DNA of 64,000 nt, taken from contig VXPE01000079.1 of assembly GCA_009839745.1 (NCBI GenBank), positions 44,762 to 108,761 of the forward strand, in the 5' to 3' direction. Position 1 is the stretch's first letter. Each line of letters starts with the position of its first letter. Below, in pieces: positions 29,643-56,152 of this stretch. The translations under genes were made by a program, and so were the position numbers. The stretch comes from Candidatus Poribacteria bacterium (GTDB taxonomy: Bacteria; Poribacteria; WGA-4E; WGA-3G). The notes under the pieces are model-generated. The model was not told the DNA's origin and did not search any database. It was given only the letters and a program-made list of their open reading frames with translations.

Positions 29643-31541
29643 ATGACTATGCGGCACAGAGTACCCCCTACAACTGAGATCAATCAGAAACCGTCAGTGC
29701 TCCGTTTTCTTTTCGGGACACTCGTCTTCGGTTCAATCCTTATCGTCCTCACCTGTTATTGGATCATCTCCGCAGAAAACCGGGTGGTGTGGGAACTGAC
29801 CGATTTTTCTATCTTTCCGACGGTGCTTTTCACCTTTTTTCTTCTCGCCCTCATCACCCCGCTCCTCAAAAAGGTTTTCAGAGGTTTCACACCTACAGCC
29901 CGTGAACTGGCATTGACGTATACGATGGTATCCGTGGCAACTGCGCTCGCGGGACACGACATCGTTCGGCAGTTAGTGCCGATGATTGCCAATGCAGGCT
30001 GGTTCGCAACCCCAGAAAATGAATGGTCAGATCTTTTCTTCCGATTCATGCCCACATGGCTAACGATTACGGATCGCGGGATTCTACAGGGGTATTTTGA
30101 AGGTGATGATACGTTTTGGCAGGAACACTATCTAAATGCGTGGATGTGGCCCATTGTGGCGTGGAGTGGGTTGGTGATTGTCATCCTGTTTATGATGCTG
30201 TGTGTTAATATTATCATCAGGAGACAGTGGATTGACCACGAGAAGTTGAGTTATCCTTTGACGACTCTACCTGTCGAATTGCTCGGTAATACGTCTACGC
30301 TTTTTCGCAATCAGTTGTTTTGGCTCGGTTTCGGCATCGCATTTGGTCTGGAGATTCTGGCAGGTCTGAACTACCTTTTTCCTGTGATACCCTCCCTCAA
30401 AATCAAGTATCAACTCTACTTTTCTGAACGTCCGTGGAACGCAGTAGGACGTTTGCCGGTCTATGTCTATCCATTTGCGATTGGGTTTGGGTATCTCATG
30501 CCGTTGGAATTGTCGTTGTCGTTTTGGTTTTTCTACCTATTTTGGGGTGCGCAGCGGGTCTTTTTCAGCGCAACAGGATGGACAACCGCCATCGGTTTAC
30601 AAACAGAGCAACGCGCCGGGGCATGGCTTGGCATTGGGACCCTCGCACTCATCACAAGTCGCCGACAGATTCTGGGAGTCCTCGGCGGCGTGTTTTCCTT
30701 TAGATCCAAAGACGGTTTATACCGTCTTGCTGTTTTTGGATTGATAATCGGTATGGCATTTGTGTTGGGGTTCTGGTATTTCGCTGGATTGTCACCGTGG
30801 GTTGTGCTCGGCTATTTCAGTATCTATTTGGTGTTATGCCTTGGGATGACACGTATGCGTGCCGAACTCGGACCCCCGACCCATGAACTGCACAATGTGC
30901 ATCCCGACAGGATTATGTTGCTGTTTGCTGGGAGTCGACCATTGGGCGCGCAAAATTTAACCAATACGACCCTCCTCTCATGGCTTGCGTACGGTTACCG
31001 ATGCCATCCGATGCCGCATCAGTTAGAGGCGTTCAAAATCGGTAGGCATTTCCGTTTGAGCGAGAATCGGTTGGTTGTTGCGCTGATTGTGGCATCAATT
31101 GTGGGAACAATCATTTCGATTGTTGGACATGTGGCACTCTATTACGAATACCGATTTGCACATTGGGGTGTTGGTGAGTTTAACCGCTTGCAAAGTTGGA
31201 TTGTCGCGCCACGGGCACCGAATCTACCGGCTATCCAGCATATCGTGTCTGGTTTCCTGTTCACGGGTGCGCTCACGTTTCTGAAACGTCAATTTTTATG
31301 GTGGCCCCTGTATCCCGTAGGCTATGCAGTCGGTAACGGTTGGGCGATCGGTTGGATGTGGTTCTCAATATTTCTGGGATGGCTCTTCAAGCAGTTACTT
31401 TTCACAGGGGGTGGGGTCCGAGCCTATCGCAGGGCATTGCCGCTATTTTTGGGTTTCGTCTTCGGTCAGTTTCTCGCGGGGAGCCTCTGGAGTTTGATAG
31501 GTGTCGTGTTAAATATGAACATGTACACACTTTTCCCGTGA
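29643..31541 (+). CDS. Large polytopic membrane protein, unknown family (paralog 1 of 3)
   Basis: 632 aa with more than 12 TM helices. Shares motifs with 43305-45338 and 54227-56152 (AGHD..., FATPENEW, RRQWI(D/E)HE(K/R)L(S/T)YP, LMPLE(L/M)SFS.WFFY.FW, C-terminal PL(Y/F)P.GY...YR(R/K)A.PLFLG). Confidence 0.6.
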   Translation: MTMRHRVPPTTEINQKPSVLRFLFGTLVFGSILIVLTCYWIISAENRVVWELTDFSIFPTVLFTFFLLALITPLLKKVFRGFTPTARELALTYTMVSVATALAGHDIVRQLVPMIANAGWFATPENEWSDLFFRFMPTWLTITDRGILQGYFEGDDTFWQEHYLNAWMWPIVAWSGLVIVILFMMLCVNIIIRRQWIDHEKLSYPLTTLPVELLGNTSTLFRNQLFWLGFGIAFGLEILAGLNYLFPVIPSLKIKYQLYFSERPWNAVGRLPVYVYPFAIGFGYLMPLELSLSFWFFYLFWGAQRVFFSATGWTTAIGLQTEQRAGAWLGIGTLALITSRRQILGVLGGVFSFRSKDGLYRLAVFGLIIGMAFVLGFWYFAGLSPWVVLGYFSIYLVLCLGMTRMRAELGPPTHELHNVHPDRIMLLFAGSRPLGAQNLTNTTLLSWLAYGYRCHPMPHQLEAFKIGRHFRLSENRLVVALIVASIVGTIISIVGHVALYYEYRFAHWGVGEFNRLQSWIVAPRAPNLPAIQHIVSGFLFTGALTFLKRQFLWWPLYPVGYAVGNGWAIGWMWFSIFLGWLFKQLLFTGGGVRAYRRALPLFLGFVFGQFLAGSLWSLIGVVLNMNMYTLFP

Positions 31542-31591
31542 AGGGATAATTTGTGTGCTGCATCCACTGTTCTCAAACGACGCACAAGGTA

Positions 31592-31936
31592 TCAGAAGTC
31601 CTCTAATGCGGCTGCTTCGGATTCAAAGACCCCTATACTCTGTGTCAGTCCAATGGTATTGAAGATATTTCGGACCTGTGTAGACGGATGGGCGACGCGT
31701 AGCATTTGTCCTTTCTCTCGCATCTTCCAAAGCAGTCTGATGATCTCACCGAAGCCACTACTTGTGATGAAACTCCGGCGTTCAAAATTGAGCAAAACCT
31801 TTTCAGCGTCCTGAACTTCAGTGTTGGCGTAAGCCTCACTCAACATAGCTTCCGAAGCATCGGTGAGATAGCCGGTAATGTCAAATATTGCAATCTTTCC
31901 TTCGTGTCGAATAGAGATTTGAGAATTTGCCCTCAC
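31592..31936 (-). CDS. STAS-domain anti-sigma-factor antagonist (SpoIIAA-like)
   Basis: 114 aa with the STAS pattern ...ITSSGFGEIIRLLWKMREKGQMLRVAHPSTQVRNIFNTIGL. Confidence 0.7.
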   Translation of the reverse strand: MRANSQISIRHEGKIAIFDITGYLTDASEAMLSEAYANTEVQDAEKVLLNFERRSFITSSGFGEIIRLLWKMREKGQMLRVAHPSTQVRNIFNTIGLTQSIGVFESEAAALEDF

Positions 31937-31999
31937 AATTTCCTCCTATAAGATCCATCCTGAATTCGTTAACCCGATTATTAGTTGCAGTGCAGTCCG

Positions 32000-32944
32000 T
32001 TAATCTTCGGTAAAAGTTCGCTGAAGTGGCGTATGTTCCGGTTGTTTTTGGACGATCGTCCCATCATCCAGATGAAGCCACGTTTCAAATTGACGCTCGC
32101 CTTCCTGTAAAGTTATGACGCGTGCACCACGGGGAAATCCGTCTCTGCCGTAAGTATTGTAGCCAGAAGCGCGCCCATAGCACAAGCGAATTCCGTGCAA
32201 ATTCCCCCAGAAATCGTTAATATGTTCGTGTCCAACAAACGTTCCCATGACATCGCCGGCTTCATGCATCGCAGCGAAGAACCCAGTATTCAGTCGAGGC
32301 GCGCAAACGTTCTCATATTTCACCCCGTAGCAGGTGTGAAAGTCCCATACCTCATCATATTCAGGGATTGGAATGTGAAAAAAGGCGAGTGCCGGAAGTG
32401 GATGTCCCGCGCCAGCAGTGAATTTTGCGGATTCTTGCAGGTACCACGCAATTTGTTCCCGTTTAATCCAATCATAGCCATCAATACGTGTTTGGGAGTA
32501 GCTGCCGGAATCGATAAAATAGAGGAGGGCTGCGGATACATTCTCCTCAGAACCTTGGATGGGTAAAACATAATTTCCGACACCGGGTATCTCTGTGGGT
32601 CCTGGTGCCGCGAGAGAGAATGTGCCTTCTTGCAGGACTGCCATCAATTCGTCGCGATCAGCGGTCCCTTCATCGTCGTGATTTCCGAAAACCGCCGCCC
32701 ACGGTGCACCGCATCCTTCTACGATTTTAACAACTTCTCGGAGAGAATCAGCGGCATTGTTGCACCCACCGCCCGATAAAATATCGCCTGTCAGTACAAT
32801 TAAATCCGGAGATTCAGCTTTCGCGATTCGTACCATCAGGTCCGCTGATTGCTGATCAGGTTCTTCACCATTCTCCCAATGAATATCTGTAAATTGCACG
32901 ATTTTGAAACGATGATCCCTGTGGAACTTCAATGTATTTTTCAC
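32000..32944 (-). CDS. Calcineurin-like metallophosphoesterase
   Basis: QFTDIHW, LTGDIL and GNHD motifs. Confidence 0.8.
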   Translation of the reverse strand: MKNTLKFHRDHRFKIVQFTDIHWENGEEPDQQSADLMVRIAKAESPDLIVLTGDILSGGGCNNAADSLREVVKIVEGCGAPWAAVFGNHDDEGTADRDELMAVLQEGTFSLAAPGPTEIPGVGNYVLPIQGSEENVSAALLYFIDSGSYSQTRIDGYDWIKREQIAWYLQESAKFTAGAGHPLPALAFFHIPIPEYDEVWDFHTCYGVKYENVCAPRLNTGFFAAMHEAGDVMGTFVGHEHINDFWGNLHGIRLCYGRASGYNTYGRDGFPRGARVITLQEGERQFETWLHLDDGTIVQKQPEHTPLQRTFTED

Positions 32945-36964: not shown

Positions 36965-37669
36965 TTATTCACGGGGCTTGTCGTTTCCACGATACGGTCG
37001 TTCGCCACGCACAAGCACCTTCCTTGGATTATCTTCCAACGCGAGTTCATCAACACCGTGGTAACCCAGGGTCATACTCATCCGCGTGCTATCTGTGCGA
37101 TTAATCCCTGCTGAGTGAATTATCATGCTATCTATAGCGAGCAACCCTCCGGCTGGCATCGGTAACGGTATCGCTTGACTCGCCGCGATGTGCTGGATTG
37201 CATCGTCCTTGAGACTCGCGAACGCAGGCAAATGATGTGAGCCGGGGACAACTCGTGTGCAGCCGTTCTCTAAGTGTGTGTCCTCGAGATAGATCAGAAC
37301 AGTCGCAATCGTCCGAGACCAATGGCGGACATCGCGATGCAATTCAAGCGAATGCGTTGAACCTGCGTCTCGGAGATAGACGTGATTGTGGCGGTTCAGC
37401 ACGAATTCTATATTCGGACCCAACAATGATTCCAACGGATTGAGAATTTCGTCGCAAGTAATCGTTTCTTGGAAGATGCCACCCCGTTCCCAAACAGCAG
37501 AGATCCGGATAATTCTACCGTCCTGTCGGGCAACAGGTTCCACGCCTTCTTCCATGTCTTTGAGTGCGGCGGCTTTAAGTGCCTCTACACGGTCTTTAGA
37601 CAGTTGCGTCGGAAATCTAATAAAACCGTTGTGGCGAAATAGTTGGATTTCTTGGGGACTCAGTTCCAT
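36965..37669 (-). CDS. Phytanoyl-CoA dioxygenase (PhyH) family Fe(II)/2-oxoglutarate oxygenase
   Basis: HRD...WSRT...GCTRVVPGSHH pattern (H-x-D...H facial triad context). Confidence 0.7.
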   Translation of the reverse strand: MELSPQEIQLFRHNGFIRFPTQLSKDRVEALKAAALKDMEEGVEPVARQDGRIIRISAVWERGGIFQETITCDEILNPLESLLGPNIEFVLNRHNHVYLRDAGSTHSLELHRDVRHWSRTIATVLIYLEDTHLENGCTRVVPGSHHLPAFASLKDDAIQHIAASQAIPLPMPAGGLLAIDSMIIHSAGINRTDSTRMSMTLGYHGVDELALEDNPRKVLVRGERPYRGNDKPRE

Positions 37670-41697: not shown

Positions 41698-43161
41698 ATG
41701 GCGCAAAAACCGAATATTCTATTTTTGATGAGCGATGAACATAGTCCGCACGCTATGGGGTATGAGGGTAATTCTATTGTCCAAACACCGAATCTTGACC
41801 GGCTCGCAGCATCCGGCACCTATTTTGAGAGTGCCTACTGCCAAGTCCCGCTCTGCACGCCCTCCCGGATGTGTATGCTCACCGGAAAACACGCGCATCG
41901 GTGTTCAGCGTGGAATAATGGGTCTATTTTGTTTCCTGAACATCTCACGATGCCGGCGCATTTTGCACAACACGGTTATGCGACTGCACTCGTTGGAAAG
42001 ATGCACTTCGGTGGCAAAGAGCAGAACAACGGTTTCCAGTCTCGACCTTACGGCGACTTGCGTGGGTATGCCGGACACCAAACAGATCCGATAAAGACCC
42101 CATCTGGGACGCGACAACGTACACGACTCGCTGGCATCACTGAGATTCCGACCAGCATGCTACAAGAACGGGTTATCAATGCGGAAACGCTCGAATACTT
42201 AAGGTCCCAGCCATCGGAACAACCGTGGTTCCTACTGGCAAGTTACAGCCGTCCACACTTTCCACTCACAGCCCCCAAACGACTTTTTGATAAGTATTTT
42301 CCCGATAATGTGGATATGCCCAATGTGCCGGATGGACACTTGGAACAGACGCACCGTTACGCGAAAGGTTTACGGGACAACTTCAAGACAGACGAAATTC
42401 CGCCCGAAGAAGCGCGTAAAGCGCGAGCGGCTTACTACGCCTGTTGCGAATTCCTTGACGAGACCATCGGAGATCTCCTCACACTTTTAGAACGGGACGG
42501 TTTACTGGAGAACACCATCATCGTTTATACGACTGATCACGGTGAAATGGCAGGAGAACACGGGCAGTGGTGGAAATCCAGTTACTATGAGGCAGCCGCA
42601 CGCGTGCCATTAATCGTATCGGACAGACATTTACCGCATCCATACGGAGAACGCGTGACCGCACCTGTCGAGTTAAACGATCTCTTCCCAACGCTATGCG
42701 CCAGAGCGGGTATCCCTACCCCCGAAGATTTAGATGGCGCGGACCTGACGAATCTTATGTCGGGGGACACTGAAGGGTGGCGTAACACTGCGATCACTGA
42801 ATACTGGGCGAACCAGACCACGGGACCGATGCGTATGCTCCGAACGCCTCGCTACAAATATGTTGCCTTCCCTGAAGATGAATCCATTCTCTTTGATTTG
42901 GAAACAGACCCGCATGAATTTGAGAATCTCGCAGGTCAAGCAGCGTCCCAGGAATTGGAGGCATCTCTCCATGAACAACTTATGGACGGATTCTCATGGG
43001 AGTCTGTTAGGGAACAGATAGATGTAGATAGAGAGCGAAGCCGAGATTTCAAAGAGCCGTGGGGTAAAGGTACCCCGAACCAGTACACACTCCCCGATGG
43101 GCGTGTCGTTGATGCGGAAACCTGTCTCTATCGTCCTTCAGTGAGAGAAGAAGGCTCATAG
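41698..43161 (+). CDS. Formylglycine-dependent sulfatase (arylsulfatase/choline-sulfatase family)
   Basis: NILFLMSDEHSPH and the C-T-P-S-R FGly motif (PLCTPSRMCMLTG). Confidence 0.85.
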   Translation: MAQKPNILFLMSDEHSPHAMGYEGNSIVQTPNLDRLAASGTYFESAYCQVPLCTPSRMCMLTGKHAHRCSAWNNGSILFPEHLTMPAHFAQHGYATALVGKMHFGGKEQNNGFQSRPYGDLRGYAGHQTDPIKTPSGTRQRTRLAGITEIPTSMLQERVINAETLEYLRSQPSEQPWFLLASYSRPHFPLTAPKRLFDKYFPDNVDMPNVPDGHLEQTHRYAKGLRDNFKTDEIPPEEARKARAAYYACCEFLDETIGDLLTLLERDGLLENTIIVYTTDHGEMAGEHGQWWKSSYYEAAARVPLIVSDRHLPHPYGERVTAPVELNDLFPTLCARAGIPTPEDLDGADLTNLMSGDTEGWRNTAITEYWANQTTGPMRMLRTPRYKYVAFPEDESILFDLETDPHEFENLAGQAASQELEASLHEQLMDGFSWESVREQIDVDRERSRDFKEPWGKGTPNQYTLPDGRVVDAETCLYRPSVREEGS

Positions 43162-43203
43162 TGCTTTAAGAACAAGGTTTGGAATTAACAATCATCAGAA
43201 TAG

Positions 43204-43302
43204 TTTTCGGTTATCGGTTTTCAGTTATCAGTAACAAGAGGATTCCCTTAGACGATACCCTTCTTAACCGACAACTGACAACTGACAACTGACAACTGAT
43301 AA
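43204..43302. repeat. Heptamer-repeat inverted block: TTTTCGG TTATCGG TTTTCAG TTATCAG ... 36 nt ... CCGACAA (CTGACAA)x3 CTGATAA, ending 3 nt before the ATG of paralog 2
   Basis: Direct reading; the two blocks are imperfect reverse complements that can form a long hairpin. Confidence 0.7.
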
Positions 43303-43304: not shown

Positions 43305-45338
43305 ATGTTGCTAAATACGCGTCAAACCCCCGATCTGGACAACGAAAAAATCGGAACGGCACCCCAATCGTTAAAAAACCAAAAAATCCGGTTCCCTGCC
43401 ATTCTTGTAGGATTGCTTTTGATAGGGGCGATGTGTGCGATCACACCCTACAACAACTATTTCCTACAAAACACGAAGATCGCAGGCAATCATCTCCCTG
43501 TTGGTTCAATCTTCGGGGTTCTCATTCTGGTGTTCCTCGTCAATGTGCCGTTGCGTAAGTTGATGCGGAATGGGCGTTTCGCTTTCTCTGCGCTTGAATT
43601 AACCGTTGTCTGGATGATGCTGATCGTCGCAGTTGGCATTCCCTCAATGGGGTTATTGCAGTTTCTGCTGCCCTCCCTTGTTGCGCTCCAGTACTTTGCG
43701 ACGATGGAAAATGATTGGTCAGAAACGCTCCATCCGCACGTCCCAGAATGGCTTGTCGTCACGGAGCCCCACGCGGTAACAGACTTCTATGAAGGGATTG
43801 CTCCGGGTGAAAGCGTTCCCTGGATGCTATGGCTCAAGCCGTTGCTTGTCTGGGGTCTTTTCGTGCTGGTCTTCTATTTTACGACGCTCTGTCTTTCCAC
43901 AATTCTCCGAAAGCAGTGGGTAGAACGCGAAAGGTTTTCGTTCCCCTTAATCCAGATTCCGATACAGCTCGCTGCTGAACCGGCGCGCGGCACGCTCCTC
44001 AACACCTTTTTCAAAAACAGGCTCCTTTGGGCAGGGATGATCCTGCCGGTGGTGTTGCACCTTATCAACGGGTTGCACGCCCACTTTCCGAGGGTGCCAG
44101 AGATTCCACTGATTTACAATATCTACACCGTCTTCACCGAAAAACCGTGGCATACCCTCGGATGGTGGCCCGCGATGCGGTTCGTCATCTATTTTTCGGT
44201 CATTGGGATCGCCTCGTTACTCACGCTTGAGGTTTCGTTTAGCCTCTGGTTCTTCTATCTCTTTTTCAAACTCCAGTATATCATCATGAATGCGATCGGA
44301 CTCAGCATCGGTCCCTGGATTAGTTGCAGCCGTCAAGTGATGGGCGGTTATCTCGTTTTTGTTCCCGCGGTTTTCTGGATAGGGCGTGAACACATCATGG
44401 CAGTTTTTAGGAAGACGTTCGGTCTCGGACACGCACGGACGAGTTACGACACCATAGGCGGTCAACCGGTAGACGATTCAAACGAACCCGTCTCGTATCG
44501 TGTGGCACTTCTTGGATTTTTCGTGGGATTTATTGTTCTTGTCGTGTTTCTGGTCGTTGCGGGGGTAACAACGTGGGTCGCGATTGTAACGCTGCTTTCC
44601 ATCTTTATCACGTCAATCGTTTTGACCTGGATGGTGGTTAACGGGGGATTGTTGCTCGTGCAGGCTCCCTTTTTCCCTTCGGAATACATCGATATTACTT
44701 TAGGTTCCAACGCATTGGGACATAAGAGTCTTGCGATCCTGAGTTTCCAACGCACTTTCCTACGCGATTGGGGCGAATTTATGATGCCGAACTTTCTGCA
44801 TAGTTTCAAGGCGGCAGATGAGGTGAAACTCGCCCGTCGTCGTGTCATGCCGATTTTGTGGGTCTCAATTGTCGTAGCGCTCCTTGTGTCCGTCTACGCT
44901 TCATTGACGCTCATTTACGACAAAGGTGCCCTGTTTTTACAGAGTTGGTCTTTCGTGGTCGCGCCGCGGAACTATTTCCAACGGATGAGCAGTCTTATCC
45001 AATTCCCGATTGAGACGAAGTGGGACGAGGTTTACAGCATGATTGCTGGCGCTGGGTTTACAGGCTTCATGCTCTGGATGCGGCAAAATTTTGTCTGGTG
45101 GTCCCTCCATCCGATCGGTTATCTGTTGGGGGCAACCTATCCACCGTTTCACCTCTGGTCATCGATTTTAATCGGATGGTTCATTAAGTATATGGCACTC
45201 AAGTTTGGGGGTGCCTCGACGTATCGAAAGATTCGACCCGTTGCGTTCGGCTTGATTTTCGGCGAGTATGTGATGGTGGGACTCTGGATGATAGTTGGTT
45301 TCTTTACAGGAATTGGCTATTTTGCGTTGCCGTCATAA
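43305..45338 (+). CDS. Large polytopic membrane protein, unknown family (paralog 2 of 3)
   Basis: 677 aa. Shares family motifs with 29643-31541 and 54227-56152. Confidence 0.6.
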   Translation: MLLNTRQTPDLDNEKIGTAPQSLKNQKIRFPAILVGLLLIGAMCAITPYNNYFLQNTKIAGNHLPVGSIFGVLILVFLVNVPLRKLMRNGRFAFSALELTVVWMMLIVAVGIPSMGLLQFLLPSLVALQYFATMENDWSETLHPHVPEWLVVTEPHAVTDFYEGIAPGESVPWMLWLKPLLVWGLFVLVFYFTTLCLSTILRKQWVERERFSFPLIQIPIQLAAEPARGTLLNTFFKNRLLWAGMILPVVLHLINGLHAHFPRVPEIPLIYNIYTVFTEKPWHTLGWWPAMRFVIYFSVIGIASLLTLEVSFSLWFFYLFFKLQYIIMNAIGLSIGPWISCSRQVMGGYLVFVPAVFWIGREHIMAVFRKTFGLGHARTSYDTIGGQPVDDSNEPVSYRVALLGFFVGFIVLVVFLVVAGVTTWVAIVTLLSIFITSIVLTWMVVNGGLLLVQAPFFPSEYIDITLGSNALGHKSLAILSFQRTFLRDWGEFMMPNFLHSFKAADEVKLARRRVMPILWVSIVVALLVSVYASLTLIYDKGALFLQSWSFVVAPRNYFQRMSSLIQFPIETKWDEVYSMIAGAGFTGFMLWMRQNFVWWSLHPIGYLLGATYPPFHLWSSILIGWFIKYMALKFGGASTYRKIRPVAFGLIFGEYVMVGLWMIVGFFTGIGYFALPS

Positions 45339-45360: not shown

Positions 45361-46632
45361 ATGCACTCCAATGAAAATAAACTCACAACCACGTGGAAAA
45401 CACGTGCGAAAACCCGACATACCGTTACTGGGATTCGGACGTGGCACGTTAACTTAAATCCACGCGCAATGCCCGGTTTGGGGTTTGCTAAGGGCGGTGA
45501 ATGCCATACGCGCATTCATACCCGGGGAAGCCCACACGGGAGACCTCATACCGTTGATTCTGATTTGTGGCAGAAACCCACAACCCAGGCGGCACATGTC
45601 GACTGGCGGGGTCCCTTCGCCGCACAAGCCGGGGCGTTAGTCGTTGAAATTACCACCGATAAGGGTTTGAAAGGATACGGTCTTGGGGGTGGCGGGCTTG
45701 CTGGCGCGCTCATCATTGAGAAACACCTCCAGAACTTCATCATCGGACGCGATCCGCTTGAGGTTGAGGAGATTTGGGAGCACCTATATCATATCACCTC
45801 CATTTATGGGCGACGCGGCTTGGTGATTTACGTCTTGAGCGGCATAGAACTCGCCCTTGTTGACCTGTGCGGAAAGATTGTGGACGCGCCTGTCTATAGT
45901 CTTATTACGGATACACCACACCTTAAGATCCCTGCTTATGCGACGGGTGCCGATGTCGGTTATTACGCAGAGAACGGCTTCGCTGCTTGCAAACTGCCGC
46001 TCCGTAACGGTCTTGCGGAGGGTGAAGATGGGTTTGCGGAAAACGTCGAATTGATACACGCGGCACGAGATGCCGTCGGAACGGAAACAGAATTGATGGC
46101 GGACATCTACCTCCGTTGGGATGTAGATTACACGCTCCGTTTCGCCGAGGCAGCTTCTGATGTGAATCTCAAATGGATCGAAGAACCTATCCCGCTTGAC
46201 GACTATGCAGGCATGGCACAATTGGTCCGTGAAGTTCAACCGGCTTGGATTGTCTCCGGTGAGCATGAGTTCACACGATACGGGTTTCGCGAACTGCTGC
46301 GTTGGGAGGCTGCGGATATGATTCAACCTGATATCAGTTGGGCGGGTGGTTTCACGGAATGTTTACGCATCGCACGTGAAGCCGCTGAACTGGATATTCC
46401 GACATGGCTCCATCAAGCGGGGACGCCGTGGGGCTTGCATCTCACTGCCTGTCTGCCCATGCCGTGTATGGCAGAGACCTTCGGTCCTTCTCGCGACGGT
46501 GTTGAGAACGAGTTGTATCGCCGCTTGCGCCCCACGCCTCATGATGGATTTTTCACCCTCAACGATGCTCCGGGTTTCAGTGTAGAACTCGATGAAGAGG
46601 TCTTAGACGCTTATACAGTTGATCGGTTATAG
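45361..46632 (+). CDS. Enolase-superfamily (mandelate racemase/muconate lactonizing enzyme-like) dehydratase
   Basis: VVEITTDKGLKGYGLGGG capping-domain region and C-terminal barrel-domain metal-ligand region (…LKWIEEP…). The ORF track extends to 45295, overlapping the upstream gene; ATG 45361 is a likelier start. Confidence 0.7.
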   Translation: MHSNENKLTTTWKTRAKTRHTVTGIRTWHVNLNPRAMPGLGFAKGGECHTRIHTRGSPHGRPHTVDSDLWQKPTTQAAHVDWRGPFAAQAGALVVEITTDKGLKGYGLGGGGLAGALIIEKHLQNFIIGRDPLEVEEIWEHLYHITSIYGRRGLVIYVLSGIELALVDLCGKIVDAPVYSLITDTPHLKIPAYATGADVGYYAENGFAACKLPLRNGLAEGEDGFAENVELIHAARDAVGTETELMADIYLRWDVDYTLRFAEAASDVNLKWIEEPIPLDDYAGMAQLVREVQPAWIVSGEHEFTRYGFRELLRWEAADMIQPDISWAGGFTECLRIAREAAELDIPTWLHQAGTPWGLHLTACLPMPCMAETFGPSRDGVENELYRRLRPTPHDGFFTLNDAPGFSVELDEEVLDAYTVDRL

Positions 46633-47451
46633 TTCGGAGTGTTTTTCCTTCATCCGTTTGACAGCATCCAATTTCGTCTGTTGCCAGTCCGTCCAATCTT
46701 TTTTTCCTTCATAGCGGACGACATCGTGAATCGTTGCGCGCGGTTGGTAAGTAATGTAGTTTCCTGTGTGCCACGCGAGGTTCCGGTAAACCATGAAATC
46801 TCCGGGTCCCAGATGCACTTGAACCGCACCCGGAAACTGCCGACAATGCTCTAAGCAGTATCGCTCGGCTTCCGCGTTGGACTGCCCTTCAGCGGGTTTC
46901 CGCAACTTCGGGTCGTTTGTTGATTGCTCTTCGCCGGGTAGATCCCACTGGCGCAGATGGCTGCCGGGGACGAACCAGGTGCAGGCATCGGCATAAATCG
47001 CGCAGTTGACCTGATTGAAATGACGCAGATCATACCAGACTTCCGCCAACTTCGCTTTGACAATCTCATCACGTGCTTCGGGGGGGACCTCCACAACGCC
47101 GTCTCGGTGCCAACCGATGTGCCACGGATGCTCAAGCGGCTCAACGAGAAGCCCCATGATGTCAACGTGACCGTGTGTATAGTCAGGACCGAGCAATTTC
47201 TCGATAGCGTCACGGAGTTCCGGTAACTCTGTGTAGTCGTAAAACGGTTTCAGATCCAGTTCATCGCCGTAATTGGATAGCGGTTGAATCCGTTGCGTTT
47301 GCGGTCCGTTGCGTTTATGTGCCAGATCGCGTGCCTTCTCCGCCTCGCGACGTAAATCGCTGAGCAACGCTGGTGGCACAATCCCTCGAAAGATGAGATA
47401 GCCTTCCGAGAGGTATTCGTTGACCATAAAATCTTCAAATTGAAATGCCAT
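46627..47451 (-). CDS. PhyH-family dioxygenase
   Basis: WHRDG...H motif context; similar to the other PhyH-like genes in the window. Confidence 0.65.
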   Translation of the reverse strand: MAFQFEDFMVNEYLSEGYLIFRGIVPPALLSDLRREAEKARDLAHKRNGPQTQRIQPLSNYGDELDLKPFYDYTELPELRDAIEKLLGPDYTHGHVDIMGLLVEPLEHPWHIGWHRDGVVEVPPEARDEIVKAKLAEVWYDLRHFNQVNCAIYADACTWFVPGSHLRQWDLPGEEQSTNDPKLRKPAEGQSNAEAERYCLEHCRQFPGAVQVHLGPGDFMVYRNLAWHTGNYITYQPRATIHDVVRYEGKKDWTDWQQTKLDAVKRMKEKHSEL

Positions 47452-48052: not shown

Positions 48053-49510
48053 ATGCGTCCTCAAGGTCCTAATCTGCTCTATATCCATTCCGACCAGCAT
48101 AACCCGTATGTGACGGGTTGCTACGGCGACCCGTTGGTGCAAACCCCTCATCTCGATCGCCTCGCCGCCGAGGGCGTGGTGTTTGAAAACGTCTATTGTC
48201 CATCTCCAATCTGTGTGCCATCCCGGATGTCGATGTTGAGTGGACGCTACCCGCATGAGAACGGAGTCTGGACGAACAGCCACATCCTCGATTCTGGGAT
48301 TCCGACTTTCGCACACGCTATGGGTGCAACGGGGTATCAACCTGTGCTTATTGGGAGGATGCATGCGTTGGGACCGGATCAGCTGCACGGGTATGCCGAA
48401 CGTCTCGTCGGGGACCACGGTCCGAACTATCACGGTGGGGGTGGTGTCGATCACGGTGAACTTTCTGGCACTGCAGGACCGGCACGTGTGAGTCTCGAAA
48501 AATCAGGGGCAGGACAGAGTGCCTATCAGGTGCACGATGAAGATGTGACGGTTGCGACAGTGGATTACCTCAATCGACTCGGCGTCCAGAAACGGGCAGG
48601 ACTTTTAGACGGGCCCTTCTCCATTTCCGTCGGGTTTATGCTCCCGCATCAACCTTTTGTTGCCCGTCAGGAGGATTATCGGCTGTATGAAGGGCAGATG
48701 ACGATGCCCCAAAATCCTGAACCTTTTACGGAGGCGTTACACCCCTACTTTCAGTGGTGGCGTGAAAAGTGTGGGATTGTTGAGGTCTCGGATGCTGAGA
48801 TATTACGCGCACGCACGGCGTATTGGGCACTGGTAACCCGAATGGATGTGATGATTGGACAGATCTTAACGGCACTCCGAGAAAACGGGTTAGATGAGAA
48901 CACCCTCATCCTGTATAGTTCAGATCACGGTGAACAGGTCGGCGAACACGGACTCTGGTGGAAACAGACGTTTTATGAACATTCCGTGAAGGTCCCGACA
49001 ATTTTATCGTGGTGTGGTGCTTTACCGGAAGGCGTGCAGTGCGATCGGGTTGTCAGTTCGCTTGATTTGAACGCCACGATGTTGGATGCCCTCGGGGCAC
49101 CCTCATTACCGCATTCCCGCGGGCGGAGCATCTTACCGCTCCTCCGTGGTGAGGATACACACTGGGAGGACCTCGCCTTCTCTGAATATTGTACCGATGA
49201 CGGGTGTTATCATCGGATGGTCAGAGAGGATGAGTGGAAGTTGAATTACTATCACGGACACCCCCCGCAGCTTTTCAATTTAAAGGACGACCCAAACGAA
49301 TTGCAGGACCGGGTAGACGATCCTGCATGCCAATACATTTTAGAACATTTGACACAAAAAGTATTGGAGGGTTGGGACCCAGTTTCGATTGCCACGCAGA
49401 TGGCTGCGAAACAAGCCGACACGCAACTTCTCGGTAGGTGGGGACGGAACATACAACCTGCAGACCAATACCGCTGGAATCTGCTACCAGAAATGGATTA
49501 TTTGGATTGA
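48053..49510 (+). CDS. Formylglycine-dependent sulfatase
   Basis: LLYIHSDQHNP and C-V-P-S-R FGly motif (PICVPSRMSMLSGRY). Confidence 0.85.
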   Translation: MRPQGPNLLYIHSDQHNPYVTGCYGDPLVQTPHLDRLAAEGVVFENVYCPSPICVPSRMSMLSGRYPHENGVWTNSHILDSGIPTFAHAMGATGYQPVLIGRMHALGPDQLHGYAERLVGDHGPNYHGGGGVDHGELSGTAGPARVSLEKSGAGQSAYQVHDEDVTVATVDYLNRLGVQKRAGLLDGPFSISVGFMLPHQPFVARQEDYRLYEGQMTMPQNPEPFTEALHPYFQWWREKCGIVEVSDAEILRARTAYWALVTRMDVMIGQILTALRENGLDENTLILYSSDHGEQVGEHGLWWKQTFYEHSVKVPTILSWCGALPEGVQCDRVVSSLDLNATMLDALGAPSLPHSRGRSILPLLRGEDTHWEDLAFSEYCTDDGCYHRMVREDEWKLNYYHGHPPQLFNLKDDPNELQDRVDDPACQYILEHLTQKVLEGWDPVSIATQMAAKQADTQLLGRWGRNIQPADQYRWNLLPEMDYLD

Positions 49511-49549: not shown

Positions 49550-50413
49550 ATGGCGAACAGTCCAATTCTCAAAGGTGAGCCTTTTAGCGAAGAGAAAACA
49601 GCACAGATTGCCGAGCAATTCTTCCGTGATGGCTTTGTTTACATTCCGGGGGTGTTGACTGAGGGAGAGGTCACCGCATTAAGGGAAAAATCTGATGCGT
49701 TTTTCGCGGATCCGAAACTTGCCGAGATAACGAATCCTGAACTTGCGGATGTCAGATACATCCAGATGGGTGCGCATGCCGAATCCCAGGAAACGCTACC
49801 TTTCATTTTACGGAACACGATCGAACTCGATCCGATTTTCCGGGATATGCTCCTCCGAGAACCGATTCTGAGTTTGGCAGAGGCGATCGTCGGTGAGAAC
49901 TGCAAGTTTTGTGGGCAGAACGTGCTGCGAAACCTTCCTGGGCTCTCGATTGATCGGTGGCATGTTGACGGCTCGGTGCACTTCCCAGTTACCGAAGAGA
50001 TGCCGCGCCACGATCCTCGTTTGCGGATGCCTGTGATGTGGTTCACCGTCCAGATGGCATTGAACGATATTGATACGATTGAAGAGGGACCGACGCAATA
50101 CGTCCGTGGCAGTCATTACTCCGGCAGACATCCCAACGATCAGGACAATCCCGAATTTGAAGGAAATAAACCTGTTTCTATCTTATGTAAGGCGGGCGAC
50201 ATCTATCTACAGGATCCGCAGTGTTGGCATCGGGGTGCCCCGAACCTTTCGGGTAAGACGCGTTATATTTTGCAATCGCAGTATGCGGCATATTGGGCAT
50301 ATTGGCGGTTCAGTCTCTGCAACGGTGTGCCTGTTCCTAAAGACGCACTGGAAAATGCAGACGATCGTTTGATGCGCCTTTTAGGACGCCCGCGTGTGAG
50401 TGAGTTGAATTAA
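49550..50413 (+). CDS. PhyH-family dioxygenase
   Basis: WHVDG...H...WHRGAPN motifs. Confidence 0.7.
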   Translation: MANSPILKGEPFSEEKTAQIAEQFFRDGFVYIPGVLTEGEVTALREKSDAFFADPKLAEITNPELADVRYIQMGAHAESQETLPFILRNTIELDPIFRDMLLREPILSLAEAIVGENCKFCGQNVLRNLPGLSIDRWHVDGSVHFPVTEEMPRHDPRLRMPVMWFTVQMALNDIDTIEEGPTQYVRGSHYSGRHPNDQDNPEFEGNKPVSILCKAGDIYLQDPQCWHRGAPNLSGKTRYILQSQYAAYWAYWRFSLCNGVPVPKDALENADDRLMRLLGRPRVSELN

Positions 50414-50436
50414 GGAGTCTGGAAACGAGGAAAAAC

Positions 50437-51837: not shown

Positions 51838-51902
51838 GTAGGGGCTGGGAATGTAATACAAGGAATGGATTCAGTCTACCCCCAGACTGAATCCCCCAGT
51901 CC

Positions 51903-52931
51903 CTACTTCTGCGGCAGGTGATACCCCTCTTTCGTCGTTTGGATGCTGTAGAGACAATTTTCTGCCGTGATATAGAGCGTCTTGCTCGTTTTGCCGCGTC
52001 CGAAGGCGACGTTGGTAGGCTTATCGGGGGTCTTGACATACGCCAGTTCCTCTCCTTCAGGCGTGTAGACGCGGACACCCGGACGGGTTTCATCGCGCAC
52101 CGCTACGAAGAGATTTCCTTCGGCATCGACCACCATACCGTCTGGACCGTCTTGTGGGGCGTAGTCAACCAGCACTTTTCGGAAAGTCGCTGTGCCTTCC
52201 GGTGAGAGGTCGTAGGCGAGGAGCGCCATACGTCCATTCAGGAGCGGCACATCCTCAGGAAAACTATCCATCGCACCGTTGTCATGACTGATGACATAAA
52301 GCGTCTGTTGATCAGGAGAGACCGCTATGCCGTTGGGTTTGCCAGCATCCGTGACGACGAGATGCACAGAGCCGTCTGGATCGATCCGATAGACACCAAA
52401 GATGGGCTGTTCAACGGGTTCATGCCCGGCATACCGTGGATCCGTAAAATAGATGCGTCCCTGCTCATCAATCGACAGATCGTTGGGTGAATTAAAGGGT
52501 TTTCCGTTATAGAGACCGGCAATAATTTCGCACTTACCTGTCGTCAGGTCTGTCCGAGTAATCCTACGTCCCCCGAAATCCGCGCCCTCTGCGACAACCA
52601 AGCGACCGTGCGCGTCAAATTTCGTCCCGTTCGACATCCCACTCGGAGAACGGAAAACGGTTGTTTCCCCAGTCTCTGGATTGTGTTTCCAGATGTTCCC
52701 AGCCTGCATATCCGTCTGATCGGTGAAGGTAATGTCGCTGAAATAGACTGTCCCGTCCGGCGCGACGGAGACCCCTTCCGTAAAATGTGCCTCGTTGAAG
52801 AGTTCTTTAAGCTCGGCATCCGGGGCAAAGATGGTATTGTGGCTGGCAGTGTTTCCAATCAAGGCAGGTGCTAACGCGAAACCTGCGGCAACGGCACATG
52901 CGAGCGTTTGTGACATATTTAGATTCGGCAT
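51903..52931 (-). CDS. Secreted SMP-30/gluconolactonase/LRE-family β-propeller protein
   Basis: Signal peptide. Repeated GxxYFTD / PNG(I/L)A blade motifs (YFSDIT, YFTDPRY, KPNGIAVS). Confidence 0.7.
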   Translation of the reverse strand: MPNLNMSQTLACAVAAGFALAPALIGNTASHNTIFAPDAELKELFNEAHFTEGVSVAPDGTVYFSDITFTDQTDMQAGNIWKHNPETGETTVFRSPSGMSNGTKFDAHGRLVVAEGADFGGRRITRTDLTTGKCEIIAGLYNGKPFNSPNDLSIDEQGRIYFTDPRYAGHEPVEQPIFGVYRIDPDGSVHLVVTDAGKPNGIAVSPDQQTLYVISHDNGAMDSFPEDVPLLNGRMALLAYDLSPEGTATFRKVLVDYAPQDGPDGMVVDAEGNLFVAVRDETRPGVRVYTPEGEELAYVKTPDKPTNVAFGRGKTSKTLYITAENCLYSIQTTKEGYHLPQK

Positions 52932-52993
52932 ATTCTACTCCTTCCAATTCCATGTTTTCGATGGCAAGATTCTACCACACATTCTAAACGTCG

Positions 52994-54010
52994 TCAACCC
53001 ATCGGATGCGGACCATGGGTTATCAGACCCTGTCGAGCGTGTGCGTAAACAGCATCTTGGATTTCAAGGATACGCACTGCATCGACGACCGTCGGTTCAA
53101 AGGTGCCACCGTCGCGGATTGCATCAAATGCCGCACCCATCACACCTTGAATCCTCGCGCCGTGAGAGATGTCCTCACTAAACTGGACCCCTTCGGTTGT
53201 GTGCACTTCAATCAAAGGTTCACCGTTACGACCATACTGTTCAAAGACGGATGCCTTCGTTCCAATGAATCGGAAGAAATGATCGCCACCGCGTGTCCCT
53301 GAGGGATAGTTATACCCCGATTCAATTATGCCCGTGATACCGTCTTCTGTTCGTAGGACACCGAGACCACTGTCCTCTATAACGCGGCTGTGCATGGAAT
53401 TGGACATGACCCCACCGACAACTGTAATTTCCCGATCGCCAACAAACTGAAGGAATGTGTCAATGCCGTGTGCGGCTTCGACTGCCCAACACCCACCGCC
53501 CGATATACTCGGCGTGCTATGCCAAGCCGAAGGGGTCGGATCGTAACGGGATGGGGATCGGTTGTTCAGTCTGCTGCTATAGAGGACGAGGTCCCCCAGA
53601 CTCCCATCAGCGATCATCTCTTTGACGACTCCCACGATTCGACTTGCACGATTCGGTAGCACGAGCGCGCTGAAGATGCCGTGTTTTTCGGAGGCTTCAG
53701 CGGCTGGACGTAACCGATCGGCACAATCCGCGAAGGGTTTATCCAAGAGGTAGGGGATACGCCGGTCCACGCACGCCTGTACATGGTCGGGCATCTCAAT
53801 GTGTTTTCCGGCGACGAGCGCTGCGTCCGGCTTGCTCGCTTCAAGACAGGCTGCTGCCGTCTCATATCCGGGACATTCAAAATCGTCTGACAACTGCTGT
53901 CGCGGTTCTGCTTCGGCATCCATGACACCTACGATCTCGTGTCCGAGTCCATGCGCTGTGCGTCCCATACTGCGTCCGTGGTGACTATAGGAAAGAACAA
54001 CAAGATTCAT
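52994..54010 (-). CDS. Gfo/Idh/MocA family oxidoreductase
   Basis: Rossmann N-terminus and LLDKP (EKP-like) motif. Confidence 0.75.
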   Translation of the reverse strand: MNLVVLSYSHHGRSMGRTAHGLGHEIVGVMDAEAEPRQQLSDDFECPGYETAAACLEASKPDAALVAGKHIEMPDHVQACVDRRIPYLLDKPFADCADRLRPAAEASEKHGIFSALVLPNRASRIVGVVKEMIADGSLGDLVLYSSRLNNRSPSRYDPTPSAWHSTPSISGGGCWAVEAAHGIDTFLQFVGDREITVVGGVMSNSMHSRVIEDSGLGVLRTEDGITGIIESGYNYPSGTRGGDHFFRFIGTKASVFEQYGRNGEPLIEVHTTEGVQFSEDISHGARIQGVMGAAFDAIRDGGTFEPTVVDAVRILEIQDAVYAHARQGLITHGPHPMG

Positions 54011-54226
54011 ATTTTATCTCCTTTTTTAATAGCGGTCAGTTATCAGATTCAGAGACTTCAGAGAGTTCGCAAGTTCATAAAGTTAGAAAGTTTGCAAATT
54101 ACAACAACTTAATATGCCCCTTCCCAACTTTAGATACACTTCGTGACTTCCCAACTTTGAAACTGCTATTCTCACTGGGAATCATGACAACTATTCCGCT
54201 GACGGGTGATCGCTGATCGCTGACGG

Positions 54227-56152
54227 CTATCTATAAAAAGAATACATCGGCATCCCCGTGATGAGGCGAATCAGCACCCATATACCCCCTATCATAAATT
54301 CCCCGAGAATCAGTCCTAAAAAGAGCGGATACGCTTTGCGATAGAGGCGAATCCCGCCCACCTTCAGCAATATTGTTTTGATACCCCAACTGATCAGTAT
54401 CGAAAACCACAACCGACCGATCGTTGATTTCTCACCAGCGACCATATACCCCGCAGGATGAAAGGGCCAGAACGGAAATATTGTGCGTAGCCACCAGAAG
54501 AAGCCGGTAAAAAGCGCGCCGATGCCGATAAAAATCACGGCAGGAATATCGGTGTCGACCGGGTGATATATCCAACTTTGCAAAAGGTTGTAACCACCCG
54601 TGCCGAGGTCACTTACAACACCGATATTGTATCCGACAACAAGATACGCCCAAAAGGATGCCAGAATCCCGATGACCGCGGCGAACATCATCGCCACAAT
54701 GAGCCTACCCGAGCGCATGCCTGTTTCCTCTGCGAGTTTGAAGCCTTCCAGTGTATGTGGCATCGGATGGGCGCGCGACCCACGATTGAAGGTGAGATAG
54801 AGACGCATCATCGTCAAGCTACCGTGCGAAATCAATCGAGTGCCGAAAATATCTGTGAGGATATCATGAGGCGTTGCATACGTCCGTATTGTCGGGGGTC
54901 CGACTTCAGCGCGGATCCGCGTCAGACTCATCGCTAACAGGTAATAGATTAAAAAGTAAAGCCCGATTGTCCAAAATTCCATGCCACCTTGTCGTGAGAA
55001 AGCGAATAGGAAAAACAAGCCGCACACTAACCCGATCGCCGCCCAGCGATAGCGCATCGGTTCTCTACTGTCGTCAAGGTCGCCGGGTGCCTTACGCCAT
55101 CGAAAGATATACTTGAGAATCCTAAGAAAGTAGCGGCGTCCGCCCCACAGCGCGAGACACGCAAGCACCAGATAGCCCCCCATCACCTGTTGCCAGTCAT
55201 ACGGAAACCCCGGCATAACGTCAAGCCCGATCGCGCTGCCCAGTATCCGTTGTGCTTTCCAGAACCAGTAGAAAAACCAAATTGAAAATGACATTTCCAA
55301 TGGCATCAGATACGCGAGTCCGACGGCGAACGAGCGAATATAAACCGGTGTCCACCCCATTGAACTCCACGGTTTCTGTGTGAAGTATTGACCCAGTTCA
55401 GCATGCCGCACGGGGACTTCGGGAATCTCTGGGAACAGCACATGGAGCCCGTTGATGAGGTTGATACCCCCTGCAATCGAAAACCCAAGCCACATCATAG
55501 GGGATCGGAAAAGCCGTCCGTCGAGCCTTGTCATTTCCAGCGGTAATTGCACAATCGGGTACGTCAATCGTTCATGCTCGATCCACTGCCTTCGAAGAAA
55601 AACGTCCAAGCAGATCATCACCCAGATGAGGACGGTCAGGAAGAGTGTCCACCAGAAAATCGGACGTAGCCACCCCCGCAGATGCCCCATCCTGTAGATA
55701 GTGCTCTCTCCGTCATAGAACGCCGGCAGGCTTGCCATATCGTTAGAGGTCAGCCATGCAGGGAGATACCGCCAAAACAACTGTTTCCATTCGTTTTCAG
55801 GGGTTGCAAACCAGAAAGCATCGGTTATCGTCGGGATAACGGTTTGCATCATATCGTGCCCTGCGATTGCCGAAGAGAGCGACAGCATCACGAAAACCGT
55901 CAGAAGTTCACCCTGTCTCAGCGCAAACCGTGGCAGAAACCGATTTAGCAGCAGGTTAAACGGGATGAGCACCATCAACGTGATAATCACGTTATAGATG
56001 AGGGACATCGTCGTCGGGAGAGTGCTCCAGAATTTGAGGTGGTTTGCCATGATGAAGTAGGTATTCACCGGAATCAGTAGCAAACCGAGTATGATGGCAC
56101 GAACCGTTACGCCGGGATGGAAATTTTGATTTTTTTGTGTTGCGTTTGCCAT
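54227..56152 (-). CDS. Large polytopic membrane protein, unknown family (paralog 3 of 3)
   Basis: 641 aa. Closest to paralog 1 (AIAGHDMMQTVIPTITDAFWFATPENEWKQLFWRYLPAWL; RRQWIEHERLTYPIVQLPLE; LMPLEMSFSIWFFYWFWKAQ). Confidence 0.6.
   Translation of the reverse strand: MANATQKNQNFHPGVTVRAIILGLLLIPVNTYFIMANHLKFWSTLPTTMSLIYNVIITLMVLIPFNLLLNRFLPRFALRQGELLTVFVMLSLSSAIAGHDMMQTVIPTITDAFWFATPENEWKQLFWRYLPAWLTSNDMASLPAFYDGESTIYRMGHLRGWLRPIFWWTLFLTVLIWVMICLDVFLRRQWIEHERLTYPIVQLPLEMTRLDGRLFRSPMMWLGFSIAGGINLINGLHVLFPEIPEVPVRHAELGQYFTQKPWSSMGWTPVYIRSFAVGLAYLMPLEMSFSIWFFYWFWKAQRILGSAIGLDVMPGFPYDWQQVMGGYLVLACLALWGGRRYFLRILKYIFRWRKAPGDLDDSREPMRYRWAAIGLVCGLFFLFAFSRQGGMEFWTIGLYFLIYYLLAMSLTRIRAEVGPPTIRTYATPHDILTDIFGTRLISHGSLTMMRLYLTFNRGSRAHPMPHTLEGFKLAEETGMRSGRLIVAMMFAAVIGILASFWAYLVVGYNIGVVSDLGTGGYNLLQSWIYHPVDTDIPAVIFIGIGALFTGFFWWLRTIFPFWPFHPAGYMVAGEKSTIGRLWFSILISWGIKTILLKVGGIRLYRKAYPLFLGLILGEFMIGGIWVLIRLITGMPMYSFYR

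Follow-up and report, generated by a model that had tools for sequence, protein, structure and literature searches.

Barley Yellow Stripe 1 (HvYS1) is an elevator-type H+ symporter of the OPT superfamily, which to our knowledge has until now had this single solved structure and no biochemically characterized prokaryotic member, and which the present results enlarge. The Poribacteria, an uncultivated group abundant in sponges and marine habitats, have a carbohydrate and sulfatase repertoire that has been much discussed. All functionally characterized OPT family members catalyse solute uptake (PMC3061005). Here, we propose, with a probability of about 70%, that three proteins encoded in a 64-kb stretch of Candidatus Poribacteria DNA (the window) represent a deeply divergent OPT/Yellow-Stripe-like branch (TC 2.A.67) and are secondary importers, with small carbohydrate-derived solutes as candidate substrates.

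The three open reading frames that the first-pass annotation had described as homologous are all present (Table 1) and align by pairwise BLASTP at 37.7% identity (paralogs 1 and 3, E 1e-143), 32% (paralogs 2 and 3, E 4e-100) and 26.5% (paralogs 1 and 2, E 9e-67). This similarity is far above chance; the three-way alignment contains >100 invariant columns and the proteins form one homologous family. Orthologues of paralog 3 in other Poribacteria are 82-99% identical, as compared to 26-38% between the paralogs, and the duplications are therefore old, as had been suggested. Paralog 1 had no orthologues among the fetched related loci. A family HMM search of the window found no fourth copy, and a 633-aa open reading frame at 4106-6007, considered as a candidate, was rejected as NuoL. 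The shared motifs reported previously are exact in paralogs 1 and 3 but altered in the more divergent paralog 2, which carries IPSMG in place of AGHD, as well as FATMENDW, RKQWVERERFSFP, LLTLEVSFSLWFFYLFF and WSLHPIGY...YRKIRPVAFG. Hydropathy and AlphaFold models agree with the expected >12 transmembrane helices in each protein and give about 14-16, with an exact count that is uncertain because the models contain broken and very long helices.

Table 1 Features of the three paralogs and their gene neighbours (positions within the window; domain assignments from Pfam)
Feature	Coordinates	Strand	Description	DUF6785	DUF6784
Paralog 1	29643..31541	+	632 aa; putative OPT-like transporter	aa 27-503, E 2.8e-149	aa 533-631, E 3.9e-30
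Paralog 2	43305..45338	+	677 aa; most divergent of the three copies	aa 30-541, E 3.9e-158	aa 577-672, E 8.5e-30
Paralog 3	54227..56152	-	641 aa	aa 16-511, E 6.2e-168	aa 540-638, E 6.1e-30
S1 sulfatase	41698..43161	+	Codirectional with paralog 2, ends 143 nt before it; Sulfatase, E 2e-51		
Enolase-superfamily sugar-acid dehydratase	45361..46632	+	22 nt after paralog 2 stop; MR_MLE_C, E 1e-45		
Gfo/Idh/MocA oxidoreductase	52994..54010	-	Codirectional with paralog 3, follows it after a 216-nt spacer		
SMP-30/gluconolactonase-type lactonase	51903..52931	-	Downstream of the Gfo/Idh/MocA gene; SGL, E 2e-44		

All three proteins belong, at full length and with high scores, to DUF6785 (PF20581; 498-560 bits, gathering threshold 25 bits) and DUF6784 (PF20580; 103-105 bits, gathering threshold 26.4 bits), an uncharacterized, always co-occurring pair from which they show no sequence difference; the family HMM scored paralog 1 at 737 bits. 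About 7,400 cluster representatives of the family were found, with Candidatus Poribacteria contributing most of the named matches. Related loci retrieved with a less diverse family alignment (A2) all came from Poribacteria, and the taxonomic breadth therefore rests on few named proteins. An NCBIfam search with the three proteins gave no match, and a literature search found no study of any DUF6785/DUF6784 member. The earlier description as an unrecognized family is thus correct in that direct profile searches reach no characterized family, but the proteins were already listed in Pfam as a DUF pair and are related to OPT/YSL by fold and profile-profile comparison. New relative to the Pfam entries are this superfamily link, the finding that DUF6785 and DUF6784 are a single fold that was split artificially, and the genomic-context profile. 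Thousands of proteins carry this DUF pair, and the link to the OPT/YSL elevator fold gives them a testable function.

Two of the three paralogs were modelled with AlphaFold (paralog 3, pLDDT 83.1, pTM 0.87; paralog 2, pLDDT 85.6, pTM 0.89) and used as independent Foldseek queries, as had been recommended. HvYS1 was the sole solved fold matched significantly, by paralog 3 with 7wst_A (E 2e-8, TM 0.64/0.68) and 7wsr_A (E 7e-8) and by paralog 2 with 7wst_A (E 4.5e-6, TM 0.64/0.71). No other fold, and no enzyme fold, scored better than E 0.06 with either model. HvYS1 (PDB 7WSR/7WST/7WSU; YSL clade) consists of a core and a scaffold domain, each with inverted repeats, and both predicted structures resemble it over their whole length (TM 0.64-0.71), at similar size and with a colinear profile alignment.

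Homology to the OPT superfamily is also apparent at profile level. Three alignments of the DUF family each matched a prokaryotic OPT profile with an hhalign probability of 91-94% (E 1e-7 to 1e-6) over 450-464 colinear columns, as compared to E 0.2-0.9 for negative controls; this support is of moderate strength because the OPT profile comprises only 18 sequences, and the N-terminal ~160 residues of the family align under relaxed settings only. The profile goes back to the HvYS1 sequence from PDB, which led to ten prokaryotic OPT genes on plasmids; a database search with the alignment of these ten added only close relatives from Pseudomonas and Comamonadaceae. Yeast OPT1-like and maize YS1-like sequences served as search seeds only, were confirmed as OPT by Pfam and by the HvYS1 match in PDB, and were excluded from the final profile; the yeast OPT1 seed had no match in PDB and none in plasmids. 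Direct searches were negative. PF03169 (OPT; gathering threshold 25.8 bits, 556 bits for the yeast OPT1-like seed as positive control) matched none of the three window proteins at E <= 1 and, at E <= 10, none of 73 diverse and 5 further family members, and re-searching homolog P0333 did not confirm the PF03169 flag precomputed for it. The family profile gave only a chance match against PDB sequences (E 0.36), hhalign reached E 0.42 against the single yeast OPT1-like sequence and E 0.16 against HvYS1 alone, and the comparison of N-half with C-half for an internal repeat (E 0.24) did not surpass the reversed control. The first-pass annotation had regarded a confident assignment to a well-characterized transporter family by profile search as contrary to its view, and such an assignment, to OPT/YSL, has now been obtained in part. 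The three paralogs (632-677 aa) and the ten prokaryotic OPTs (635-678 aa) are alike in size, and a length near 650 aa with about 14-16 helices is consistent with the ~16 transmembrane helices of prokaryotic OPTs. As the two models match only the HvYS1 fold and the homology extends to the profile level, we interpret the family as a divergent OPT branch of secondary importers and not as enzymes.

Residue-level comparison with HvYS1 revealed several invariant positions in common, namely an LxYP that follows the third long helix, Lys in the D-x-K motif of TM9, the hairpin glycines, and a G-[ED] near the C-terminus that equals HvYS1 cavity residue D651. Both also have a broken TM2-equivalent helix with a small-residue motif (AIAGHD in the family, AFAGGF in HvYS1). 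However, sequence identity is only 12-13% and the residues binding Fe(III)-phytosiderophore are not kept. The proposed proton-site carboxylates D446, D490, and D494 are replaced by G418, H466, and G470; family-conserved E469 aligns with HvYS1 Q493, one residue from D494, and prokaryotic OPTs also carry Gly at the D446 position. Of the positions mutated in HvYS1, K482 and Y451 correspond to G458 and R423, and nothing in the family aligns with F130 or Y551; Y547, which lies in the binding pocket and was outside the mutagenesis set, corresponds to Y521. The family further differs from HvYS1 by an aromatic- and acid-rich, predicted periplasmic insertion of ~55 residues, which holds its best-conserved motif, FATPENEW, and by bacterial hosts and sugar-catabolic gene neighbours as opposed to an iron-related context. 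With prokaryotic OPTs (PF03169; TC 2.A.67 clusters 4 and 5, Gomolplitinant & Saier 2011) it shares the length class, ~16 helices, an N-terminal (L/V)TxR(A/G)...NxY, RRxx...LxYP, the xxFK of TM9, and a C-terminal GLIxGE. Yet the invariant block DNxQDLKTGxLxGATPxxQQ is reduced to HxLExFKxA...R, and the family is centred on Poribacteria with several paralogs per genome. NPG and KIPPR, the OPT signatures, were derived from the eukaryotic peptide clade (Koh et al. 2002, as cited in PMC3061005) and are both absent from the family, where only E82 near the NPG region (HvYS1 E114) and K472 before the KIPPR region coincide.

The neighbouring genes agree with the earlier description and comprise GT9/GT28-like/GT9, sulfatase, MR_MLE, Gfo/Idh/MocA, and SGL lactonase genes. 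Paralog 1 stands alone, without a catabolic partner and divergent from a GT9 gene across a 55-nt spacer. The sulfatase next to paralog 2 has the CTPSR formylglycine motif and no signal peptide, its domain beginning at residue 5, and its best solved relative is a cytoplasmic choline sulfatase (E 5e-53). The closest solved relatives of the dehydratase are L-rhamnonate dehydratases (E 3e-59). Beside paralog 3, the Gfo/Idh/MocA protein is weakly similar to levoglucosan dehydrogenase and glucuronide-3-dehydrogenase, and the lactonase has an N-terminus resembling a signal peptide and an 'exported gluconolactonase' as best solved relative (E 7e-26). In a census of 106 family members, with neighbours labelled by HMM (labelling by BLAST undercounted divergent families), Gfo/Idh/MocA was the sole clearly enriched neighbour, at about 4-fold in counts that are inflated by synteny common to related genomes. 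Orthologues and distant subfamilies (L001, L083, L095) show this adjacency as well, and sugar-acid pathway genes recur near family members. Sulfatases made up 7.8% of genes beside family members and 3.9% elsewhere in the same loci (~2-fold), and both sulfatase and PhyH adjacency were barely above the high Poribacteria background (PMC3909097).

By analogy with barley YS1, a mobile core domain would move the substrate against the scaffold domain in an elevator-like manner, with uptake as the direction and most likely the proton gradient as driving force. Candidate substrates are water-soluble sugars, glycosides, sugar acids, and possibly small sulfate esters, which would be handed to cytoplasmic enzymes encoded alongside, i.e., the Gfo/Idh/MocA dehydrogenase, the rhamnonate-dehydratase-like enolase, and the choline-sulfatase-like sulfatase. 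The enrichment of Gfo/Idh/MocA together with recurring sugar-acid genes suggests small carbohydrate-derived organic solutes as the substrate class, but this is the weakest step, with odds that we consider close to even or slightly below. A purely cytoplasmic pathway fits poorly at paralog 3 because of the exported-looking lactonase. The three old paralogs may be importers of differing specificity, which is in accordance with the replacement, in paralog 2, of AGHD, the predicted binding-site motif where the TM2-equivalent helix breaks. The earlier suggestion of substrate importers is favoured by predicted fold and profile-profile comparison, whereas its specification to sulfated glycans is not established given the ~2-fold sulfatase adjacency and the cytoplasmic character of the sulfatase beside paralog 2. 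It is tempting to speculate, with less confidence than for the substrate class, that DUF6785/DUF6784 as a whole is an OPT subfamily that switched from peptides or metal chelates to carbohydrate-derived solutes and provides, with many paralogs per genome, a main route by which Poribacteria and some Armatimonadota and Sumerlaeota take up organic carbon. If the substrates are sugar-like, the OPT fold is not confined to peptides and metal chelates, and metabolic reconstructions of genomes now listing these genes as 'hypothetical' would improve.

Import of oligopeptides, glutathione, peptidoglycan fragments, or metal chelates would conform to the substrates of all characterized OPT members (PMC3061005, PMC9691689), and some copies have Amidase, Amidase_3, and Amidohydro_2 genes only a few genes away, with a GNAT acetyltransferase gene overlapping the start of one homolog. 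Nevertheless, we consider such substrates unlikely, as genes for peptidases, siderophores, or nicotianamine did not recur in the census, a sugar-type dehydrogenase is the neighbour enriched there, the operons encode sugar-acid enzymes, and the mutagenesis-tested HvYS1 residues are not kept. Paralog 1, so close to divergent LPS-core-type glycosyltransferase genes, could instead be thought to export or flip a glycoconjugate or envelope precursor, and a distant homolog (L097) adjoins a WbsX-type gene and nucleotide-sugar epimerases. Glycosyltransferase adjacency, however, did not recur among the 106 census members, and no flippase or exporter with an OPT fold is known to us. Characterized OPT members all work in uptake (PMC3061005), which makes this proposal improbable even for paralog 1.

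Least probable is the idea of enzymes embedded in the membrane with the His/Asp/Glu motifs as active site, be they acyl- or sulfotransferases, as put forward in the first-pass annotation, or glycosyltransferases of GT-C type. While the polar motifs GHD, FATPENEW, PLE/PLD, and HPMPHxLE are conserved in or near the membrane, the family's conserved motifs lie where helices break and in hairpin loops, the substrate-binding sites of elevator transporters; a transporter fold was the only match of both models, and the profile-level homology is to transporters, so that an enzymatic role found no support.

An Rfam search upstream of each copy detected no riboswitch or other Rfam element, and promoter and terminator scans gave a signal no richer than in shuffled sequence. 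The dehydratase gene downstream of paralog 2 probably starts at ATG 45361, 8-9 nt after a Shine-Dalgarno-like AAGGAA site, and not at TTG 45295, the mechanical start of the open reading frame.

Three homologous polytopic membrane proteins encoded in the window (p1, p2 and p3) are best read as divergent secondary importers of the OPT superfamily, which includes the YSL clade. This favours the substrate importer among the functions offered by the first-pass annotation and leaves its membrane-embedded enzyme without support. The family itself, previously described as unrecognised, is not new, and p1, p2 and p3 belong as ordinary members to a pair of domains already in Pfam: DUF6785 (PF20581), which matches them at E 1e-149 to 1e-168, and after it DUF6784 (PF20580), at ~1e-30. 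Both 'domains' were present in 73/73 diverse members scanned. NCBIfam holds no model for p1, p2 or p3, and we found no mention of either DUF accession in the searchable literature, where the OPT-superfamily placement and the catabolic gene context appear to be unreported. Profile searching against 1.84 billion cluster representatives gave 7,374 matches at E <= 1e-3. Named family members were nearly all from Poribacteria; Chthonomonadales and candidate division BRC1 each contributed a single example.

Features of the window (positions in the 64,000-nt stretch)
Feature	Positions	Strand	Remark
p1	29643-31541	+	632 aa
p2	43305-45338	+	677 aa
p3	54227-56152	-	641 aa
S1 sulfatase	41698-43161		beside p2; CxPxR formylglycine motif
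S1 sulfatase	48053-49510		CxPxR formylglycine motif
PhyH Fe(II)/2-oxoglutarate dioxygenase	36965-37669
PhyH Fe(II)/2-oxoglutarate dioxygenase	46627-47451
PhyH Fe(II)/2-oxoglutarate dioxygenase	49550-50413
UvrD-type helicase	57791-59530	-	embedded GIY-YIG nuclease domain
HmaA SNF2 helicase	14356-17718		PADLOC E 6e-203
ThsB-like TIR gene	18109-18534		between HmaA and HmaB
8xMP membrane protein	18537-18974		between HmaA and HmaB
Unannotated 293-aa ORF	19536-20417		between HmaA and HmaB
HmaB methylase	20859-23201		PADLOC E 2e-104
HmaC DUF499 ATPase	23260-26106		PADLOC E 2e-108
CitMHS_2-type (citrate/anion) transporter	7771-9261	+	within complex I (nuo) operon

The family HMM found exactly three members in the window; a 633-aa ORF (4106-6007) considered as a further paralog is NuoL instead. 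Identity by BLASTP is 37.7% between p1 and p3 (E 1e-143), 32% between p2 and p3 (E 4e-100) and 26.5% between p1 and p2 (E 9e-67), and the three-way alignment has >100 invariant columns. The motifs initially quoted as shared by all three are exact in p1 and p3, but p2 has diverged at every one. Because p3 orthologues elsewhere are 82-99% identical whereas the window paralogs share only 26-38%, the duplications are old, in agreement with the earlier view of ancient paralogs rather than a recent duplication. Poribacteria genomes carry several copies, frequently in tandem; chromosome OZ244950.1 contributes three family loci, and a pair of copies occurs at two of these. The window DNA is 94-97% identical to portions of chromosome OY764016.1 (Candidatus Poribacteria MAG) and therefore comes from a genome closely related to it.

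Predicted models indicate an OPT-like fold, and profile comparisons indicate common ancestry. AlphaFold2 modelling of p3 without templates, from a 26-sequence alignment (pLDDT 83.1, pTM 0.87), gave a structure that in Foldseek matched only two PDB entries below E 0.001, 7wst_A and 7wsr_A, both of barley Yellow Stripe 1 (HvYS1), the only solved OPT member (7wst_A: E 2e-8, TM 0.64/0.68, 667 columns), with the next match at E 0.06 and TM 0.10. For the most divergent paralog, p2, an independent model built from a 42-sequence alignment (pLDDT 85.6, pTM 0.89) likewise matched 7wst_A alone (E 4.5e-6, TM 0.64/0.71).

Direct sequence searches with the family matched no known family, and no member scanned reached the Pfam OPT model PF03169; one member (P0333) carries a precomputed PF03169.21 flag, but rescanning it against PF03169.20 with hmmscan at E <= 10 did not bear this out. 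The HvYS1 sequence, taken from PDB (with a maize YS1 sequence serving only as bait), retrieved ten prokaryotic plasmid genes annotated as OPT family (from Halobacterium, Halorientalis, Lachnospira, Pseudomonas, Comamonas, Tsukamurella, Legionella, Actinomyces and Neisseria), and adding seven PF03169-bearing database proteins gave an 18-sequence OPT alignment. Using hhalign, a 143-sequence DUF alignment matched it with 94.3% probability (E 9.6e-8) over 459 colinear columns (DUF 162-640, OPT 94-624), and two further DUF alignments did so at 93% (E 3e-7) and 91% (E 1e-6). Reversed-profile controls reached only E 0.21-0.36, and unrelated polytopic proteins (NuoL/M/N and the CitMHS_2 transporter of the window, and a 250-aa membrane protein family) only E 0.24-0.86 against the DUF or OPT profile. 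The alignment runs unbroken through DUF6785 and DUF6784, so the split between them is artificial.

Residues invariant in both families include L196 and P199 (DUF RRQWxExERLxYP, OPT PLRRxLVVxxxLPYPEG), K472 in TM9 (DUF HxLExFK, OPT DNxQDLK), and the positions G418, G545, G613 and G617. An N-terminal (L/V)TxR(A/G)...NxY motif is also common to both, and DUF E618 aligns with the cavity-lining HvYS1 D651; E82 and HvYS1 E114 coincide under relaxed alignment settings only. In contrast, the OPT signatures NPG and KIPPR are missing from the DUF family. The proposed proton-site aspartates of HvYS1 correspond to G418, H466 and G470, with the family-conserved E469 one residue off the D494 position. Among HvYS1 residues tested by mutagenesis, K482 and Y451 are replaced by G458 and R423, and no residue aligns with F130 or Y551. 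The DUF family further differs by an insertion of ~55 residues (p3 98-152) after the TM2-equivalent helix break, which is rich in acidic and aromatic residues, contains the best-conserved family motif, FATPENEW, and, given the Arg-rich loops on either side of it (73-79 and 186-216), is predicted by the positive-inside rule to be periplasmic. In the p3 model AGHD lies exactly at the break (H80-98/H101-115); H-D is absent from p2 at this position. Judged from spacing rather than alignment, the break probably corresponds to the unwound TM2 of HvYS1 (A-F-A-G-G-F-G-S), which touches substrate (PMC9691689).

Despite failing the Pfam OPT test, the family thus seems to be a variant of the known OPT kind that works like OPT proteins. 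By analogy with the only characterised relatives, it would mediate proton-coupled uptake, and gene context tentatively suggests small carbohydrate-derived solutes as the substrate class. The p2 gene has a sulfatase 143 nt upstream and an enolase-superfamily dehydratase 22 nt downstream (probable start ATG 45361, preceded by AAGGAA) that is closest to L-rhamnonate dehydratases (E 3e-59). Downstream of p3 on the same strand, beyond a 216-nt spacer, lies a Gfo/Idh/MocA gene; its product is weakly similar to levoglucosan dehydrogenase and glucuronide-3-dehydrogenase (E 1e-8 to 6e-7). A lactonase gene comes next, also on this strand; its product is similar to an exported gluconolactonase and begins with a signal-peptide-like segment. 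The p1 gene is solitary, with a GT9 gene divergently transcribed. Across 106 family members (1,258 genes, 89 fetched loci), Gfo/Idh/MocA genes made up 11.1% of directly adjacent genes versus 2.8% of those at least four positions away (odds ratio 4.3, Fisher p 2e-5), compared with 7.8% versus 3.9% for sulfatases (2.1, p 0.045) and 9.4% versus 5.5% for PhyH (1.8, p 0.06); as syntenic orthologues make up many of the loci, these are not independent counts. Gfo adjoins family members in three separate subfamilies (L001, L083, L095), and MR_MLE does so again in L098. The family member is the last gene of a complete sugar-acid operon in L083 (MR_MLE, 2-hydroxyacid dehydrogenase, two PhyH, KDPG-type aldolase, Gfo), and two tandem copies in L084 lie amid GH4, xylose-isomerase-like TIM barrel, Gfo and sulfatase genes.

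The sulfated-glycan substrate proposed in the first-pass annotation is weakened, because sulfatases adjoin family members at close to the background rate and the one next to p2 resembles cytoplasmic choline sulfatases (E 5e-53), a small-molecule type, not glycan sulfatases. Both window sulfatases start directly with the catalytic domain and hence have no signal peptide. The three PhyH genes within 14 kb are consistent with the known abundance (expansion) of such genes in Poribacteria (PMC3909097); some PhyH members, one of them from Poribacteria, demethylate 2'-O-methyl nucleosides (PMC12709175).

In one Poribacteria subgroup of the DUF family, a ~250-aa polytopic membrane protein lacking a Pfam match is encoded directly ahead of the family member and in the same orientation, with no exception among 16 adjacent cases (L003:9036-9803, L032:5035-5781, L030:724-1491 and ~15 more loci). 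It could be an accessory subunit; the window encodes no homolog. Control OPT loci (L085 from a Pseudomonas aeruginosa plasmid, L086, L087, L090, L094) have their own recurrent neighbours: a PqqD-family gene directly follows OPT in Eubacterium eligens and at all three loci from haloarchaea (one Halorientalis and two Halobacterium), and tauD lies upstream of the Pseudomonas gene.

Heptamer tandem repeats occupy intergenic tracts at 1668-1700 and 43203-43299 (AGTTATC, AACTGAC), one of them directly upstream of p2, and the p3-Gfo spacer (54011-54226) holds other short direct repeats. Immediately upstream of the p3 start codon lies an inserted IS element (56153-57790; rve-type integrase ORF 56495-57130; flanking 21-nt tandem repeats at 57398-57501), which may have displaced the native promoter in the window strain; in OY764016.1 (L021), only ~45 nt separate the UvrD-like gene from the transporter. 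The best PADLOC matches of the UvrD-type helicase of the window are GajB of Gabija (E 1e-65). PADLOC also detected a complete Hma anti-phage system (14356-26106), and GC content falls to 0.41 around the genes interposed between HmaA and HmaB. The CitMHS_2 gene is flanked by Proton_antipo_M subunit genes.
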